DNA of 64,000 nt from Centroscyllium fabricii. Its lineage: Eukaryota. Below the pieces are notes generated by a model that had not been told where the DNA came from, searched no databases, and worked only from the letters and a program-made list of their open reading frames with translations. The translations under genes were made by a program, and so were the position numbers. Below, piece after piece: positions 964-44,269 of the stretch; within the stretch, counting starts at the first letter, position 1, and each line of letters opens with the position of its first letter. The DNA is taken from positions 10,788,001 to 10,852,000 of the forward strand of contig JBNRSN020000010.1 in NCBI GenBank assembly GCA_051313645.2, given 5' to 3'.

Positions 964-1893
964 TTGGTGTGCAAATTTAAAGCACATGGGATTGGTGGCA
1001 ATGTGTTGACGTGGATTGAGAACTGGTTGCCACACTGGAAACAAAGAGTAGGAATAAATGGGTACTATTCAGAAAGTCAGGCAGTGACCAGCTGGGTACT
1101 GCAATGATCGGTGCTGGGGCCCCAGATGTTTACATTATATATTAATGATTTGGACGAAGGGATTAAATGTGCAATTTCCACATTTGCGGATGACACTAAG
1201 TTGGGTGGCAGTGTCAGCTGCGAGGAGAATACTAAGAGGCTACAGAGTGACTTAGACAGGTTAGGTGAATGGGCAAAGGTATGGCAGTTGACGTACAATG
1301 TGGATAATGTGAGGTTATCCACTTTGGTGGTAAAAATAGAAAGACAGACTATTATTTGAATGGTGACAGATTAGGGAAAGGGGAGGTGCAACGAGACCTG
1401 GGCGTCATGGTACATCAGTCACTGAAGGTGGAAATGCAGGTACAGCAGGCAGTCAATAAATCAAATGGCATGTTGGCCATCACAGCGAGGTGATTTGAGT
1501 ACAGGAGTAGGGAGGTTTTGCTACAGTTGTACAGGGCCTTGGTGAGGCCACACTTGGAGTATTGTGTGCAGTTTTGGTCTCCTAACTTGAGGAAGGACAT
1601 TCTTGCTATTGAGGGAGTGCAGCGAATGTTTACTAGATTGATTCCCGGGATGGCCATACTGACATATCAAGAAAGACTGGATCAACTGAACTTGTAGTCT
1701 CTGGAGTTCAGAAGAATGAGGGGGGATCTCATAGAAACATTTAAAATCCTGACGGGTTTGGACAGGTTGAATGCGGGCAGAATGTTCCCAATGTTGGAGA
1801 AGCCCAGAACAAGGGGGCACAGACTAAGGATAAGTGGTAAGCCATTTAGGATTGAGATGAGGAGAAACATCTTCACTCAGAGAGTGGTGAACC

Positions 1894-2887
1894 TGTAACG
1901 GTTTGGTGTATTCGGAATGAAGGCGGGGCCCAAATGCAGAGACACTGAAATGTTTACTAAAACCAAACTCCTTTATTCCTAAAACCCCATATAATACCCT
2001 AAACATACAATATATATAGAACACATATACAACACAAGTCTTATAAACAGACCGGCACAAACTTCCAAACATAGCGAGCAATGAATAGAGGGGTGCTACG
2101 CAATCCAGGCGCGCCATTCTCCCCAAGAATACCAGTCCTGGCATAACTGGCCACCCTAAAGAGAACCAAGCAAGTCCTCCTCAGCGAGCATGACATCTCC
2201 ATCCACCCTCTACGTAGAGGATGTGGGAACAGCTTATGCTTCCATATGACCAATGTCCAAACCAGGGCTCGGATGTAGAGATGAATGTCCATGTAGTAGA
2301 AATGGGTCCGACCTACTTCTTCTGCTCTGACACAGAGACTTAACCCCATGGCAATCAGGCAGTAGCGCACCAGATCTACCGGCAGGGGGCCTCCCTTACC
2401 AAACAGATGAATGTCCATTGCTGAGTTCCCAATAGCAGGGCGCACTGTCAAGGCGGAGGGAAATGAGTTCCACCTCAATGCCCCTGTTGAGCAACCCAGC
2501 CTGAGCACCAGAAATAGCAAAGTACAAGTACAAGCTGAGTCAATCGATCTGCAACCTCCTTGCCTCTGACGGTAACTCAGCACAGCAGAAAACCACCTCC
2601 TTCCAGTGGCCTGAAGAATGAACAATGGATAACCAGTCCCATGACACATTACCATCGAATGATCCCGCCTCTGCTCTCTCCCAACCTCCTGATTATATCC
2701 TAAACCCAGCAAGTACCCTATTGGGTGATAGCCAATAATCCTGAGGGGATGAGAGCAGAGCACAACTAACACATGCATAGATAATTGAACAGTTAATAAC
2801 ATAACAAGGGACCTGTTCCTTGAAACAGCTGTGGAGCAAACAGCAAAAACTGTTTCTAATATTTAAAGGAACAGGCCCCCCGTGACA
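1894..2887 (-). repeat. 3' LTR (994 bp)
   Basis: Preceded on the minus strand by a G-run PPT; AATAAA on the minus strand at 1972-1977. Confidence 0.93.
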
Positions 2888-2905
2888 GGACCCCCCCCCC
2901 CCTTA
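2888..2905 (-). promoter_or_regulatory. Polypurine tract
   Basis: Minus strand TAAG(12)TCC immediately before the TGTCAC start of the 3' LTR. Confidence 0.85.
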
Positions 2906-3038
2906 AGGGCCGACAGTGACGGCCCAAATACCCAATAAGCCAAAATAGGGTGGGCGGAGGGTACAAAGAGGAGACAACAATCTACAAAAAATTTTTTACG
3001 AGCGTTTAAACGCTACAGTGTCTGCTGGGCCCCAATTT

Positions 3039-3051
3039 GGCGGGATCATTC
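3039..3051 (-). promoter_or_regulatory. Primer-binding site, self-priming type
   Basis: Minus strand GAATGATCCCGCC abuts the 5' LTR, lacks the TGG of a tRNA PBS, and is exactly complementary to minus-strand GGCGGGATCATTC inside the LTR (3815-3827; 2657-2669). Confidence 0.85.
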
Positions 3052-4045
3052 TGTAACGGTTTGGTGTATTCGGAATGAAGGCGGGGCCCAAATGCAGAGA
3101 CACTGAAACGTTTACTAAAACCAAACTCCTTTATTCCTAAAACCCCATATAATACCCTAAACATACAATATATATAGAACACATATACAACACAAGTCTT
3201 ATAAACAGACCGGCACAAACTTCCAAACATAGCGAGCAATGAATAGAGGGGTGCTACGCAATCCAGGCGCGCCATTCTCCCCAAGAATACCAGTCCTGGC
3301 ATAACTGTCCACCCTAAAGAGAACCAAGCAAGTCCTCCTCAGCGAGCATGACATCTCCATCCACCCTCTACGTAGAGAATGTGGGAACAGCTTATGCTTC
3401 CATATGACCAATGTCCAAACCAGGGCTCGGATGTAGAGATGAATGTCCATGTAGTAGAAATGGGTCCGACCTACTTCTTCTGCTCTGACACAGAGACTTA
3501 ACCCCATGGCAATCAGGCAGTAGCGCACCAGATCTACCGGCAGGGGGCCTCCCTTACCAAACAGATGAATGTCCATTGCTGAGTTCCCAATAGCAGGGCG
3601 CACTGTCAAGGCGGAGGGAAATGAGTTCCACCTCAATGCCCCTGTTGAGCAACCCAGCCTGAGCACCAGAAATGGCAAAGTACAAGTACAAGCTGAGTCA
3701 ATCGATCTGCAACCTCCTTGCCTCTGACGGTAACTCAGCACAGCAGAAAACCACCTCCTTCCAGTGGCCTGAAGAATGAACAATGGATAACCAGTCCCAT
3801 GACACATTACCATCGAATGATCCCGCCTCTGCTCTCTCCCAACCTCCTGATTATATCCTAAACCCAGCAAGTACCCTATTGTGTGATAGCCAATAATCCT
3901 GAGGGGATGAGAGCAGAGCACAACTAACACATGCATAGATAATTGAACAGTTAATAACATAACAAGGGACCTGTTCCTTGAAACAGCTGTGGAGCAAACA
4001 GCAAAAACTGTTTCTAATATTTAAAGGAACAGGCCCCCCGTGACA
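3052..4045 (-). repeat. 5' LTR (994 bp)
   Basis: Minus strand TGTCACGG...CCGTTACA; followed directly by the PBS-like GAATGATCCCGCC. Confidence 0.93.
3851..3856 (-). promoter_or_regulatory. LTR TATA-like box
   Basis: Minus strand ATATAA 24-29 nt upstream of the self-primer (3827); same motif at 2693-2698 in the other LTR. Confidence 0.6.
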
Positions 4046-4280
4046 GAACCTGTGGAATTCTCTATCACAGAAGGTTGTTGGGGCCAGTTCACTAGATATA
4101 TTCAAAAGGGAGTTAGATGTAATACTTACAACTAGGGGGATCAAGGGATATGGCGAGAAAGCAGGAATGGGGTACTGATGTAGCATGTTCAGCCATGAAC
4201 GTGTTGAATGGCGGTGCAGGCTCGAAGGGCCGAATGGTCTACTCCTGCACCTGCTTTATATGTATCTATGTATCTATGCA

Positions 4281-5680
4281 CACTAGATCGCACCATGCAA
4301 GTCATGTGAATTGCTACCCATAAGCAGACACGAAACATGACAGTGCCCCTCCTTCCACACTGTTAATGCTACAACTACAGAGCCAAGCACGATGTTAAGT
4401 ATGTCTGGGAAAAACAGGTATTTGAGGCAACGTAAAACACCAAGCAAACTTCAAAGAACAATAACACCACACTGAAGCTGCTGTATTAGTTCGAGTGGCG
4501 TTTTCATAATGTTCACAGCCTTCTGGAGAGTAAGGAGACGCTGCCAGAAGTGGCAGTATCTCAGACTGTGGATATTGAAAGCACCATCAGGAAAATACTG
4601 CTGGATGATGTGTTTTTGCTAGAGTGGTTAGCAACCTTATACTACTCGCACCGATAGACTCTGCAATTGTTACATTGAAGGAGATGGCACTGCCTTGTCA
4701 GCTGTTTTCAGCCTTTTGCTGAATGAAAAGAAAAAAGCAGCATTGTAGTGCCCAAAGCTGAGGAGAAGGCAATTGGTCAATTCAAATAGACTCATCAACA
4801 ATTTTGTTTCACGCTGATTCACATTGCAGCATACATGCTGGACGCAATGTAAACTGAGAGAACAGTAATTCTGGAGGACAGATCAAAAGTGCTTATGTTG
4901 TGATTTCTGTACTCTCACACCCCCTCAGTCTGGACGTGGGCCAATTTCTCGGAAGTCTGGCAAAGCTGTTCACCAAGCAATGTCTTTGGAATGGGGTCAG
5001 TATATGGGAATCATGCAAGCATATCAGTGCACATATCTGGTGGAAGGGACTTTGTGCATCTGAGGCCCTGTCACCCTTTGCATCGCTGATACTCCAAATC
5101 CCAGCTTCATCAGCGGCCTCTGAACGAAACTGGTCACCTTCTGTGAATACACATAAAAGGGTGTGCAACAGGCTGAATAAAAAGTGACCGGAGAATATGG
5201 TGGCGAACATGCAACTTATTGAGCCAGGTACAGAAGTGCCCACCACACAGATAGACAGTGACACAGAGGAGGAAATTAACTCGTCAGGGCCAAACTCAAA
5301 GAATTAGGTGAATCAATGATGTGTAGAAGTCTCAGAAGACTCGTCAATAGAAAACTCAAAGGCACAAAATAAGAACAAATTACAGGCTAAAAAAACTGAT
5401 GCACTTTTTATTTTATTTTAGGTGGGTCTTTTTTGTGGGGGTTCAATAAAGTTGAAAATTATAACCGACATACAATATTGAAAGCCTGTTTTTATTTTTT
5501 GGTATCTGTATGCCTATTTTGATAACAACGATGAAATAAGGGTCAGAGACAATAACCAACAGTGTGCAAAAAACTCAAATTTCCCTTAAATTCCCATGAT
5601 TTATCCAAATTCCTATAAATTCCCAAAAATTCCCATGTAAAGATTCCGCTTTACATAATTGCCGTAATTTTGCCACCCTA
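4281..5680 (+). mobile_element. hAT DNA transposon remnant (transposase 3' part and right end)
   Basis: ORF 4900..5187 contains WWKGLC...ILQIPASSAASERNWS, the hAT C-terminal dimerisation motif; AAATTCCC subterminal repeats; TIR-like end AATTTTGCCACCCTA at 5666-5680. Confidence 0.8.
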
Positions 5681-5753
5681 TATGTGGCTCAAGGAAGGTT
5701 TAGGCATTTGCTGTATGATGAAGTGTAGCCGTATGTGTAGAAAGTTGAAAAGA

Positions 5754-5880
5754 GGAAAACTTCCATGGGAATTTTCGGGAATATATAGGGATTTGGCTAA
5801 ATCATGGTAATTAAAGCGAATTTTGAGTTTTTTTGCACACTGATGGTTATTGTCTCTGACCCTTATTTCATCGTTGTTAT
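5754..5880 (-). repeat. Inverted copy of the hAT subterminal segment 5522-5647
   Basis: Reverse complement matches ATAACAACGATGAAATAAGGGTCAGAGACAATAACC... Confidence 0.85.
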
Positions 5881-11248: not shown

Positions 11249-12146
11249 GGCCTCTGTCTTCCTGTGGCCCGATTGCTGCGGGTGCGTGCAGACGTGCACC
11301 CGCGGCGCACCCGCACGTGATTTTTTTTCTCAGCTGGACTTCCTGTGGGAAATGCCATTTTTTCTTCGTTCGGAGTGGACGTCTTTTTTTTGGTCCGGGG
11401 TGAAAGCCACGCCCACTGAGGTCGGCTTTACCCCCGAACGAAACTCAGAATCGGCCAGCGGGATGAAGATTATCAGGTTAGGAAGCACCTTTTCTTTGTT
11501 TTTTTAAGGTTTGTAGGAAGCTGATTTTTTTAAGTTTCTGCCTTTTTTGCTGTTAGGGTTTTTTTTTGCTCCAAGTAAAAAAACCAGGTTTAAAGTTAAC
11601 ATTTTTAAAATTCCTTTGGAGATATTTGTTTGTGGTCTTACAGCTTGTAAATGTGAAGGTTTTTATTTATTTTGGTGATAGTGAAAAAAATCGGGGATTT
11701 GAACGCGATGTCCTCAGCTCTGAGAGCTCTGAGAGCTGAACACATCGCGTTCAAATTCCCGATTTTTTTAACTATCACCAAAATATATATAAACTTTCAC
11801 ATTTACAAGCTGTAAGATCACAAACAATTATCTCCAAAGGAATTTAAAATAAATTAACATTAAACCTGTTTTTTTCACTTCTCAAAGCTGCCTGCAGCTT
11901 CTTACCTATCCTTTTTATATGGGCAGCAAAAGAGAGAGGCTTCCCCACGTTGTACGCCCCTATATTGAGCAGCTGACTACAGGAAGTCTGCAGCTCAAGG
12001 TCTTCCTGGGGAGGAAGCTGAAACCCATTGCCCATCAGCACCGGAAGTTCACGTTTCTGGTAATCACCCGAGCTGCCCCCCCACGAGGCATTTCTGACCC
12101 CCCTTCGTGGGGGTGCAGCTCTTCTGGAGCACAGGAAGACAGGGCC
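11249..12146. mobile_element. ~900-bp palindromic MITE with near-perfect central hairpin
   Basis: TIRs GGCCTCTGTCTTCCTGTG / CACAGGAAGACAGGGCC; ~140-bp inverted arms centred on 11726/11727; right end resembles 24300-24499. Confidence 0.78.
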
Positions 12147-41401: not shown

Positions 41402-41422
41402 AAAATAGGGGGGGGGGATGGG

Positions 41423-44269
41423 ATGGATGGGAACAAGGAGGGAAATAAAGAAGGGATAGGGCATCGGGCAGGAAAAAAGGGTCAGCAGGGAGGAAATAAT
41501 GGGCTAAGGTGTGCATACTTTAATGCAAGAAGCATTAAGAATAAAACTGGAGAGCTAGAGGCCTGGCTATCAGCATGGGAGTACGATGTGGTGGCGGTAA
41601 CAGAGACATGGGTAGAGAGGGGACAGGAATGGTTGTTGGGGGTCCAGGGGTACAGAACATTTAGCAAATGCAGGGAGGAAGGAAAACGAGGAGGAGGAGT
41701 AGCGATTCTGGTAAAGGACACTCTGAAGGCGGTAGAGAAGCAGCAAGGAAAGGAATCGAAGGTGGAATCAGTATGGGCGGAAATAAGGAACAAAAAAGGG
41801 CAAGTCACACTGGTAGGTGTCTACTATAGACCGCCTAACAGTGAGAAGGAGGTGGAGGAAGAGATAGCGGAGGAAATAAGGGGTAGATGTGAAAAGCACA
41901 AAGTAGTGGTGATGGGGGACTTCAACTTTCCACACATAAGCTGGGAAACGTTCAGGGTCAATGGCTCGGAAGGAGAGGTGTTCGCGCAGTGTGTGCAGGA
42001 GAACTTCCTAACGCAATACGTGGAGAACCCAACAAGGGGGGCAGCAATTCTGGATCTGGTATTAGGCAATGAACCGGGGCAAGTAGAAGGGATGGAAATC
42101 AGGGAGAGCTTTGGAGACAGTGACCACGACTCACTGACATTCAGCATAAGAATGGATAAGGACGAGGACAGGAGGACAAATAGGGCGTACTGCTGGGGAA
42201 AAGGGAACTACGGGGGCATCAGGCAAGACTTGAGCAAAGGGGAATGGGATAACGAGGCCAGGAACGGAAATCCGCAGGAAAGATGGCAGGGGTTCAGGGA
42301 TCGCATATTGGAGGCCCTGAGCAAACATGTACCATGCAGAAGGGGTGACAGAAGGAGGAGGAGGGAACCATGGTGTACGAAAGGGGTAATACAGCTGGTT
42401 AAAAAGAAAAAGGAGGCTTACAGGTCCATGAGGAGGAAGGAAGACACTGGTACAAGGACGAAGTATAAAGAGGCTAGGAGGGAACTGAAGAACGAACTAA
42501 GGAAAACGAAAAGGGGGCATGAAAAAACACTGGCGGGAAAGGTCAAGGAGAACCCAAAGGCATTCTATGCTTATGTAAGAAGCAAGAGAATGAAAAGGGA
42601 AAGTTTGGGACCATTAAAGAACGGGGAGGGACAGATGTGTGTGGAGCAGGAAGAAATGGCGGAAACCTTGAATGAATACTTTGCGTCAGTATTTACCAAG
42701 GAAAGGGACCAGGAAGGGGGGGGGACAGACGTAGAACAGGGGAGGGGAATGGGGGAGGGGAGGATATCGAGGGAGGAGGTGTTAGGAATACTGGAACGGT
42801 TAAAGGTGGATAAATCACCGGGGCCAGACGGGGTGTATCCGAGGATACTATGGGAGGCAAGGGAAGAAATAGCGGCACCCCTGGCCTCGATCTTTGAGGC
42901 CTCACTAGCATCAGGGATGGTGCCGGGTGATTGGAGGGAGGCGAATGTAGTTCCACTATTTAAGAAAGGGTCCAGGGAGGAACCGGGAAACTACAGACCG
43001 GTCAGCCTGACCTCAGTGGTGGGAAAAGTAATGGAGAGGGTACTGAGGGATAGGGTGTATAGGCACTTAGAAGAGGTTAAATTCATTAGGAGCAGTCAGC
43101 ACGGATTTGTGAAGGGCAAATCGTGCCTGACAAATCTGATAGAGTTCTTTGAGGAAGTGACCAGGAGTGTGGATGAAGGGAAGGCGGTTGATGTAATCTA
43201 TATGGATTTCAGCAAGGCCTTTGATAAAGTTCCACATGGAAGACTGATGAGGAAAGTAAGGGGATGTGGGGTAAATGAGGGAATAGCTAACTGGATAGAG
43301 AACTGGCTGGCGCAAAGGAGACAGAGAGTGGTAGTGGATGGATGTTACTCCAGTTGGAGACCGGTCACCAGCGGGGTCCCGCAGGGATCAGTGCTGGGTC
43401 CACTACTGTTCGCTATCTTCATAAATGACTTGGAGGAAGGAACAGAGGGGTGGGTCAGTAAGTTTGCGGACGATACTAAAATTGGGGGGGAAGTGGATGA
43501 GGAAGAAGGAGGGGAGAGACTACAGAGGGATATAGAAAGAATGCAGGGATGGGCTGAGAGATGGCAGATGGAGTTCAATGCTGGGAAATGTGAGGTGATG
43601 CATTTTGGCAGAAAGAACGGAAGGAGGGAATACAGACTAAACGGAAAAGTGTTAAAGGAAACGGAGGAGCAGAGAGATCTGGGGGTGTATGTGCATAGGT
43701 CACTGAAGGCGGCCACACAGGTGGACAGGGCAGCAAAGAAGGCCTATGGGATACTGGCCTTCATCAATAGGGGCCTGGAGTTTAGGGACAGAGAGGTGTT
43801 GATGAGGCTGTATACAACGCTGGTACGACCGCACTTGGAGTACTGCGTTCAGTTCTGGGCACCGAGGTACAGGAAGGACGTGGAGACTCTGGAGAGGGTG
43901 CAGAGGAGATTCACAAGGATGCTGCCGGGGATGGGAGGGAAGACGTACGAGGAGAGGCTGGGGCAACTGGGGCTGTTCACTCTAGAGAGAAGAAGGGCAA
44001 GGGGAGACCTGATAGAGGTATTCAAAATGATGAAGGGCATTGATCAGGTGGACATACAAAGACTGTTTCCAAGGATGGGGGAGATAGGTACGAGAGGACA
44101 CAAGTATAAAATACAGGGAGGAAAGTTCAGAAGGGATGGAAGAGGGGGGTTCTTCACGCAGAGGGTTGTGGGCGATTGGAATAGGCTGCCGGCACGGATT
44201 GTAGAGGCAGGCAGCCTGGAGGCGTTCAAGAGGAAACTGGATATCCACATGGGGAGAGAAGGGTATTAG
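41423..44269 (+). CDS. CR1 ORF2p: APE endonuclease plus reverse transcriptase (948 aa, uninterrupted)
   Basis: YFNARSI, VAVTETW, GVYYRPP, MGDFNFP, GDSDH; NYRPVSLTS, YMDFSKAFD, GVPQGSVLGP, KFADDTK. Confidence 0.96.
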   Translation: MDGNKEGNKEGIGHRAGKKGQQGGNNGLRCAYFNARSIKNKTGELEAWLSAWEYDVVAVTETWVERGQEWLLGVQGYRTFSKCREEGKRGGGVAILVKDTLKAVEKQQGKESKVESVWAEIRNKKGQVTLVGVYYRPPNSEKEVEEEIAEEIRGRCEKHKVVVMGDFNFPHISWETFRVNGSEGEVFAQCVQENFLTQYVENPTRGAAILDLVLGNEPGQVEGMEIRESFGDSDHDSLTFSIRMDKDEDRRTNRAYCWGKGNYGGIRQDLSKGEWDNEARNGNPQERWQGFRDRILEALSKHVPCRRGDRRRRREPWCTKGVIQLVKKKKEAYRSMRRKEDTGTRTKYKEARRELKNELRKTKRGHEKTLAGKVKENPKAFYAYVRSKRMKRESLGPLKNGEGQMCVEQEEMAETLNEYFASVFTKERDQEGGGTDVEQGRGMGEGRISREEVLGILERLKVDKSPGPDGVYPRILWEAREEIAAPLASIFEASLASGMVPGDWREANVVPLFKKGSREEPGNYRPVSLTSVVGKVMERVLRDRVYRHLEEVKFIRSSQHGFVKGKSCLTNLIEFFEEVTRSVDEGKAVDVIYMDFSKAFDKVPHGRLMRKVRGCGVNEGIANWIENWLAQRRQRVVVDGCYSSWRPVTSGVPQGSVLGPLLFAIFINDLEEGTEGWVSKFADDTKIGGEVDEEEGGERLQRDIERMQGWAERWQMEFNAGKCEVMHFGRKNGRREYRLNGKVLKETEEQRDLGVYVHRSLKAATQVDRAAKKAYGILAFINRGLEFRDREVLMRLYTTLVRPHLEYCVQFWAPRYRKDVETLERVQRRFTRMLPGMGGKTYEERLGQLGLFTLERRRARGDLIEVFKMMKGIDQVDIQRLFPRMGEIGTRGHKYKIQGGKFRRDGRGGFFTQRVVGDWNRLPARIVEAGSLEAFKRKLDIHMGREGY

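Follow-up and report, generated by a model that had tools for sequence, protein, structure and literature searches.

The gene-less element at positions 1894-4045 of the window (the whole 64,000-nt stretch of Centroscyllium fabricii DNA analysed here) is very probably a young, high-copy deletion derivative of a Tf1/sushi-type chromovirus of the same genome, one that likely uses the initial 11 nucleotides of its own RNA as the primer for reverse transcription and likely borrows Gag and Pol. Its putative place in the Tf1/sushi lineage follows from comparison of protein domains, LTR-end motifs and PBS type. Below, this 2,152-bp element and its relatives of the same build are called mini-elements, and the chromovirus that resembles them is called the coding family.

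Anatomy of the element

The element lies on the minus strand and is made of two 994-bp LTRs (1894-2887 and 3052-4045) with TG..CA ends, separated by a 164-bp interior (2888-3051). The two LTRs are 0.5% apart, with five substitutions (1951/3109, 2150/3308, 2220/3378, 2516/3674 and 2724/3882) and no indels. The first-pass annotation of this DNA had described two such LTRs with about five differences, a GAACC target-site duplication (TSD) and the 164-bp interior, and all of its coordinates hold. It had also called the interior non-coding, which is too simple a term for a remnant of the gag start joined to the 3' untranslated end of a coding element. In window coordinates, the features are:

4046-4050, no strand: TSD on the 5'-LTR side, GAACC on the plus strand
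1889-1893, no strand: TSD on the 3'-LTR side, GAACC
3052-4045, minus strand: 5' LTR, 994 bp, with predicted U3 at 4045-3827, predicted R-U5 at 3826-3052 and a putative U3/R border between them
1894-2887, minus strand: 3' LTR, 994 bp, with the second copy of the primer sequence at 2668-2658
3851-3855, minus strand: TATA-like box (TATAA), 29 nt before the primer G
3827, minus strand: G at -1, where most copies of the subfamily have T; likely a copied RNA cap, present in both LTRs
3816-3826, minus strand: 11-nt self-primer, the predicted first bases of the transcript, complement of the PBS core 3050-3040
3199-3960 (also 2041-2802), minus strand: 253-codon open frame inside the LTR, not conserved and without a Pfam match
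3130-3135, minus strand: AATAAA, 83 nt before the LTR end
1972-1977, minus strand: AATAAA in the 3' LTR copy, the predicted polyadenylation signal
3083-3114, minus strand: U5 arm of the predicted U5-leader stem
3039-3051, minus strand: PBS, with spacer G 3051, 11-nt core 3050-3040 and near-invariant C 3039
3006-3035, minus strand: leader side of the predicted U5-leader stem; it corresponds by homology to the start of gag in the coding family (first codons), with no ATG in the window copy
2888-2961, minus strand: remnant of the 3' untranslated end of the coding family, including the polypurine tract (PPT) at about 2904-2891

On the minus strand, the 13 nt from 3051 to 3039 are the exact complement of 3827-3815 and, in the other LTR, of 2669-2657. 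When the LTR was resampled 20,000 times under a first-order Markov model, the 11-nt core arose by chance 7 times. The 253-codon frame was considered as a gene and rejected: across 25 loci the longest frame ranged from 130 to 303 codons with shifting starts, and the frame, which has no Pfam match, is probably incidental. An Rfam scan returned a single weak match at the flank, below the gathering score, which was taken as chance.

The window element is inserted in a LINE-like repeat, and the flanking open frame at 1716-1898 presumably belongs to a CR1-type LINE. The same site of this repeat has been hit three times (window 1861-1893, L164 and L241, with the last 17 bases identical), L164 and L241 sharing an orientation that is opposite to that of the window copy; this could reflect target preference or the mere abundance of the repeat.

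Copy number and subfamilies of the mini-element

The junction of LTR end and PBS has 5,724 exact matches in the 7.2-Gb genome, against none for a reversed-pattern control. With the interior as query, the 40 top places (the best 40 of 2,776 candidates) were found at 95-100% identity. Two full LTRs were present at 25 of the first 30 loci; of these 25, 20 had TSDs of 5-6 bp and five lay in tandem arrays. A larger sample consisted of 70 junction loci taken by position on one contig, minus four tandem sisters, which leaves 66 copies. Their interiors span 152-175 bp in the 64 that could be measured, the primer-to-PBS distance is 495-995 nt (60 measurable copies), and an exact 5-bp TSD is found in 26 of the 33 scorable ones. 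An exact AATAAA stands 71-84 nt from the LTR end in half of the sample (33 of 66), with no exact match in the other 33. The LTRs of the mini-element are split into strongly diverged subfamilies. Between them, the R region (window 3826-3135) varies greatly in both length and sequence, while U3, the primer, the U5 end and the interior stay recognisable.

These counts bear on the possibility that the mini copies arose from a full element by deletion or segmental duplication and are dead, with no mobilisation of their own. Internally deleted coding copies do exist, some with interiors of about 1,970 bp and others with different deletions, and some mini copies sit in tandem arrays. However, thousands of mini copies are dispersed; their interiors fall in a single narrow size range, each insertion has its own TSD, the two LTRs of a copy are nearly identical, and the copies form several diverged subfamilies with LTRs about twice as long as those of the coding family. 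An origin as inert copies is extremely improbable, the separate TSDs and the division into subfamilies already refuting it. The expectation that many copies would share the same short interior with separate TSDs was thus borne out thousands of times over, and the window element is no one-off deletion. Tandem arrays of mini copies sharing single LTRs were seen at L007, L008, L010, L017, L020, L033/L034, L038-L040 and L042/L043.

A coding chromovirus relative

The coding family was found by a junction pattern that combines the same LTR end and PBS type with a following start codon; the pattern has 8,342 matches in the genome. In 20 coding loci that were read further, most LTRs are about 500-650 bp long and most interiors about 4.5 kb, two of them being about 1,970 bp. 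Pfam domains in one full-length coding copy comprise Retrotrans_gag/Ty3_capsid, protease, RT, RNase H, integrase, SH3_Tf2-1 and Chromo, and the gag-PR-RT-RH-IN order together with the C-terminal chromodomain identifies the family as a chromovirus. LTR ends, leader and 3' interior are common to the mini-element and the coding family, and their U5 ends are homologous. The mini interior combines the PBS and first codons of the coding family with the 3' untranslated end and PPT of that family; the 3' interior is 73-80% identical over 65-112 nt in most coding copies. The primer-to-PBS distance in the coding relatives is 261-522 nt, the loop of the mini-element being about twice as long.

An autonomous partner with the same LTR ends and PBS had been anticipated in the first-pass annotation. 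A chromodomain Ty3/gypsy family with the same ends does exist, but an identical LTR and PBS variant was not found in it: start-codon-bearing copies with the PBS variant of the window were absent, all 13 matches belonging to another variant with LTRs of 464-575 bp, and no coding copy with the 1-kb LTR of the window element was found. It is for this reason that we infer, rather than observe, mobilisation by the coding family. Matches to SH3_Tf2-1 were also tried as a route to the partner and rejected, as they belong to other Ty3/gypsy families with no useful similarity to the mini-element. Two loci, L127 and L143, represent a second non-autonomous class, with interiors of about 1,970 bp and one frame that contains gag, protease and chromodomain and has no RT/integrase core. 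Coding copies also occur in tandem arrays that share single LTRs (L134, L142 and L249-L251).

Covariation of primer and PBS

Self-priming by an 11-nt segment, predicted to be the 5' end of the RNA, is well supported by sequence comparison. The 5' primer site is readable in 60 of the 66 sampled copies; it was located by its invariant 8-nt part, so that only the flanking positions are informative. At primer base 3 and PBS base 10, these 60 copies have G:C in 37 cases, C:G in 11 and T:A in 8, with two wobbles and two mismatches. Watson-Crick pairs are therefore present in 56 of 60, against a permutation mean of 28.6 and a maximum of 42 in 100,000 permutations, although the copies are related and the significance is overstated. 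A tree built from U3 only (64 rows) needs at least two separate paired changes.

In the coding family, an exact 11-nt complement starting from PBS base 2 was found in 23 of 30 copies and a 9-nt one in a single copy; none was found in six, and it was never longer than 11 nt. Its letters differ from those of the mini-element at three positions, and two further primer/PBS positions compensate between the mini-element and the coding family. Where a coding variant has PBS base 9 changed, the matching change in the primer is present in 9 of 11 scorable copies, and the mini-elements L263 and L293 carry this intermediate state. Altogether, there are about four independent paired changes of primer and PBS, counted without regard to their direction. 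The covariation across subfamilies for which the first-pass annotation had proposed a search is thus present, primer base 3 and PBS base 10 occurring in three paired states.

The pairing stops at both ends of the 11-mer. The outer pairs are rarely Watson-Crick: of 60 copies, 9 have such a pair at -1 and 3 at +12. The 13-nt match of the window copy therefore overstates the primer: the reported 13-nt complement is exact in that copy, but the family-wide duplex is 11 nt long and its outer two pairs are not conserved. The C that follows the PBS is present in 65 of the 66 ordinary copies.

Alternatively, a host tRNA, a tRNA fragment or another small RNA might act as the primer, the internal complement being a by-product of template switching that copied one site onto the other. 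The fold-back insertions described below show that the primer and PBS sites can indeed exchange strands, and the comparison with tRNAs was limited to the Lys and Cys isotypes: against 29 tRNA-Lys and tRNA-Cys gene sequences (63 candidates scored), the best match of the PBS was 5 nt. On the other hand, the PBS lacks TGG and exists in at least five sequence states, each matched in cis, which one host RNA could not track. The pairing ends at an initiator-like site 29-30 nt from the TATA box, and a G:U wobble at the first base of the primer persists in 10 of 60 copies, whereas site-to-site copying should erase it. A host primer is therefore very unlikely, and self-priming is the reading followed here.

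A predicted stem between U5 and the leader

A U5-leader duplex located just after the PBS has a calculated energy of -34.6 to -49.3 kcal/mol in 20 mini-elements and of -18.9 to -33.9 kcal/mol in 17 coding copies; in 43 control windows the mean was -20.6 and the best -31.3 kcal/mol. One position of this stem is A:T in 12, G:C in 30 and G:T in 7 of the 49 scorable copies (of 66), and never A:C. Conservation of the stem would account for the retention of the gag start in the mini-element. In a pseudoknot-free fold of the 835-nt leader, the U5-leader stem wins and the primer:PBS helix is left with a probability of 0.01; the helices cross each other, and the folding program cannot hold both. Of the three duplexes that make up the Tf1 'pretzel', the central one and the one between U5 and leader have support here, whereas a search for the third gave best partners that were scattered, with no consistent place.

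Predicted transcription start and the G at -1

The spacing from the TATA box, the recurrent G at -1 and the fold-back insertions point to 3826 as the predicted transcription start, and 3826 is favoured over 3827 because the outer pairs of the duplex are not conserved. The TATA-like box is 29 nt from the primer G in 48 of 60 copies, and a pyrimidine-G pair occupies -1/+1 in 50 of 60. On three trees of 80 copies, -1 was the most changeable of the 15 upstream bases (19 changes; -6 equalled it once). In the window subfamily (39 copies) it changed 13 times, more than any other of the 994 columns (next 8), although the tree had been built without the columns near the primer, so that their change counts come out too high; among these excluded columns, the next highest changed 6 times. 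G at -1 arose ten times among 11 of these 39 copies, one of them the window copy, and was absent from 29 coding copies with shorter loops (p=0.002). The base at -1 is discordant between the 5' and 3' LTRs in only 3 of 80 copies, and G is less frequent there in other subfamilies. Reverse transcriptase can copy the RNA cap as an extra base, and the G at -1 likely goes back to a C added by RT at the capped end of the RNA. A preference of MMLV RT for adding non-templated C has been described (PMC5888575).

This G has implications for the origin of the primer, which might come in trans from another element RNA in the same particle; equally, strong-stop cDNA might switch to an uncut second RNA. The -1 G is recurrent, mostly private and usually present in both LTRs, in 11 of 39 copies against 0 of 29 in the coding family, and strict cis priming would be expected to strip the cap from the template before the minus strand arrives. 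If the template always lost its capped end, a -1 G in both LTRs would be hard to explain; a second RNA may therefore often supply the primer or receive the growing strand. However, a cap-copy origin of the G is putative, the preference described in PMC5888575 being for non-templated C; template switching against the C at PBS base 13 could also yield a G at -1, and the lower frequency of this G in other subfamilies does not favour the trans route. Trans priming thus seems possible but somewhat unlikely. It would be a variant of self-priming, compatible with the best explanation, in which the long R-U5 would not have to form a loop and the cap would often stay on the template.

Fold-back insertions

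Integrated by-products offer a further view of the predicted priming by the 5' end of the element's own RNA. A search for junctions at which the sequence departs from the PBS beyond base 12 or 13, with patterns slightly different for the C and non-C classes, returned 66 loci; a control search for junctions leaving it after base 11 returned three, all of them point mutants. Most of the 66 junction loci are point mutants, deletions or later insertions, and among them are 19 fold-back events (three identical loci counted once), all from the mini family:

Fold-back loci: L239, L240, L242, L262, L266-L268, L273, L274, L276, L278, L283
Fold-back loci, continued: L284, L288, L290/L291/L304, L295, L296, L299, L303

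In each, the LTR end is followed by the primer complement and then by an inverted U3 that finishes in an integrase-type end. A TSD flanks the whole unit in 15 of the 19, which indicates that the rearrangement preceded integration. Five fold-backs with a whole-unit TSD are complete elements that have the primer complement directly after the 3' LTR. Such an arrangement would result from copying of a primer that had not been removed from the cDNA, and a PBS copy is retained at the 3' end of about 50% of Tf1 cDNA (PMC11042837). Base 13 is C in 16 of 19 fold-backs, compared with 9 of 60 copies having the matching -1 G (p=6e-8, with search patterns that differed slightly), and in L278, L284 and L303 the element's own -1 base would not give the C of the fold-back. 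On their other side, L268, L274 and L276 have an inverted U5 as well. The fold-backs support self-priming and do not prove it, since such products need only the complementarity. Some other copies seemed to end at the 5' end of the primer and were rejected as later insertions or internal deletions on longer flanks:

Rejected primer-end copies: L241, L246, L252, L269, L285, L287, L302

Tentatively, the successive stages of self-priming in an animal element might be preserved in the genome sequence: the -1 G and the 13th C at fold-back junctions might both be copies of the RNA cap, which would fix the transcription start to the base. In this doubtful proposal, the near-invariant C after the PBS would accept the cap copy at second-strand transfer, and the mini-element with its long loop would, unlike its coding partner, often prime from a second RNA.

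Proposed mechanism

Transcription by Pol II would start at 3826, 29 nt after the TATA box. Nucleotides 1-11 of the RNA would then anneal to the PBS, which lies some 775 nt further downstream, and a simultaneous helix between U5 and the leader would make the whole a pseudoknot. By analogy with Tf1, RNase H of the partner would cut after nucleotide 11 and RT would extend the resulting fragment. The primer may often escape removal from the cDNA and be copied into a PBS-like tail, which could occasionally fold onto the primer sequence of the LTR and end up as an integrated inverted-U3 product. The 5-bp TSD would be made by the integrase of the partner.

Relation to known elements

Self-priming has been presented as a common trait of the Tf1/sushi group: it is demonstrated for Tf1 and implicated or predicted in other members, in hosts that range from fungi to vertebrates (PMC4600332, PMC6317226, bioRxiv 10.1101/2022.12.06.519325). 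The mechanism is therefore already known, and the mini-element is not a new class of element. The closest systems are Tf1/Tf2 of S. pombe, Tj1, Tosmo1-3, Tcry1, and sushi-ichi with its vertebrate relatives. Like this group, the mini-element has no tRNA PBS, and it has a primer-like segment at its predicted 5' end that is complementary to the PBS, a flanking U5-leader duplex and a chromodomain in its coding relative. Its LTR ends fit the TGTYANR..CNTNACA of Sushi, which also has AATAAA near the LTR end (PMC3601003), and the signs of primer retained on cDNA and the tandem copies are shared with Tf1 (PMC11042837). Unlike the Tf1/sushi elements, it is devoid of coding capacity, and its primer-to-PBS distance is 495-995 nt versus 261-522 nt in the coding relatives; unlike for Tf1, the third duplex was not found, and experimental proof of priming comes only from fission yeast. 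The R region had been regarded as unusually long. This is true of the loop, about twice that of the coding family, but a long R as such is typical of the sushi clade (PMC3601003).

The element had also been likened to TRIMs and LARDs. The likeness extends to its non-autonomy, its short interior with PBS and PPT, and its many copies with TSDs, but it is too large for a TRIM and its interior is too short for a LARD. LARDs have kilobases of non-coding interior. The mini-element shares with them the lack of coding sequence, full-size LTRs and probable mobilisation in trans, and differs in its interior of 164 bp (152-175 bp in the family). With TRIMs (plant TRIMs, biv-TRIM, Helenus including zebrafish LTR-11_DR, Ajax and Cassandra) it shares non-autonomy, two LTRs, a tiny interior with PBS and PPT, thousands of copies and tandem arrays. 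However, it measures 2,152 bp with LTRs of 994 bp, whereas TRIMs are below 1,000 bp with repeats of 100-250 bp (PMC6934838). The vertebrate Helenus families described in PMC10886601 use tRNA primers, unlike the mini-element, in which the PBS has no TGG and finds its complement in cis. For biv-TRIM, neither a priming mechanism nor a partner was established in PMC6934838. No report of a self-priming non-autonomous vertebrate LTR element was found in a search that did not extend to Repbase and most subscription journals, which makes this weak evidence of novelty.

The new value of this element lies in evolutionary and fossil evidence for self-priming and not in a new mechanism. It provides an animal case with about four paired changes and a minimal set of cis-elements defined by natural deletion; a coding relative allows comparison, and by-products of reverse transcription are preserved as insertions. 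It also leads to a base-precise prediction, namely that capped 5' ends should map to 3826 and that a fragment of 11 nt should exist, and makes the question of cis versus trans priming testable.

Other features of the window

Long degenerate tandem arrays of 49-nt and 48-nt units, partly complementary to each other, occupy 22.7-38 kb and 58.7-60.5 kb of the window. A palindrome with 154-bp arms and no spacer (89%) lies at 11573-11880, and terminal inverted repeats of 52 bp (98%) bound a small element at 5522-5880. On the plus strand, a stop-free frame of 955 codons at 41402-44269 is strongly purine-skewed and is probably a low-complexity repeat.
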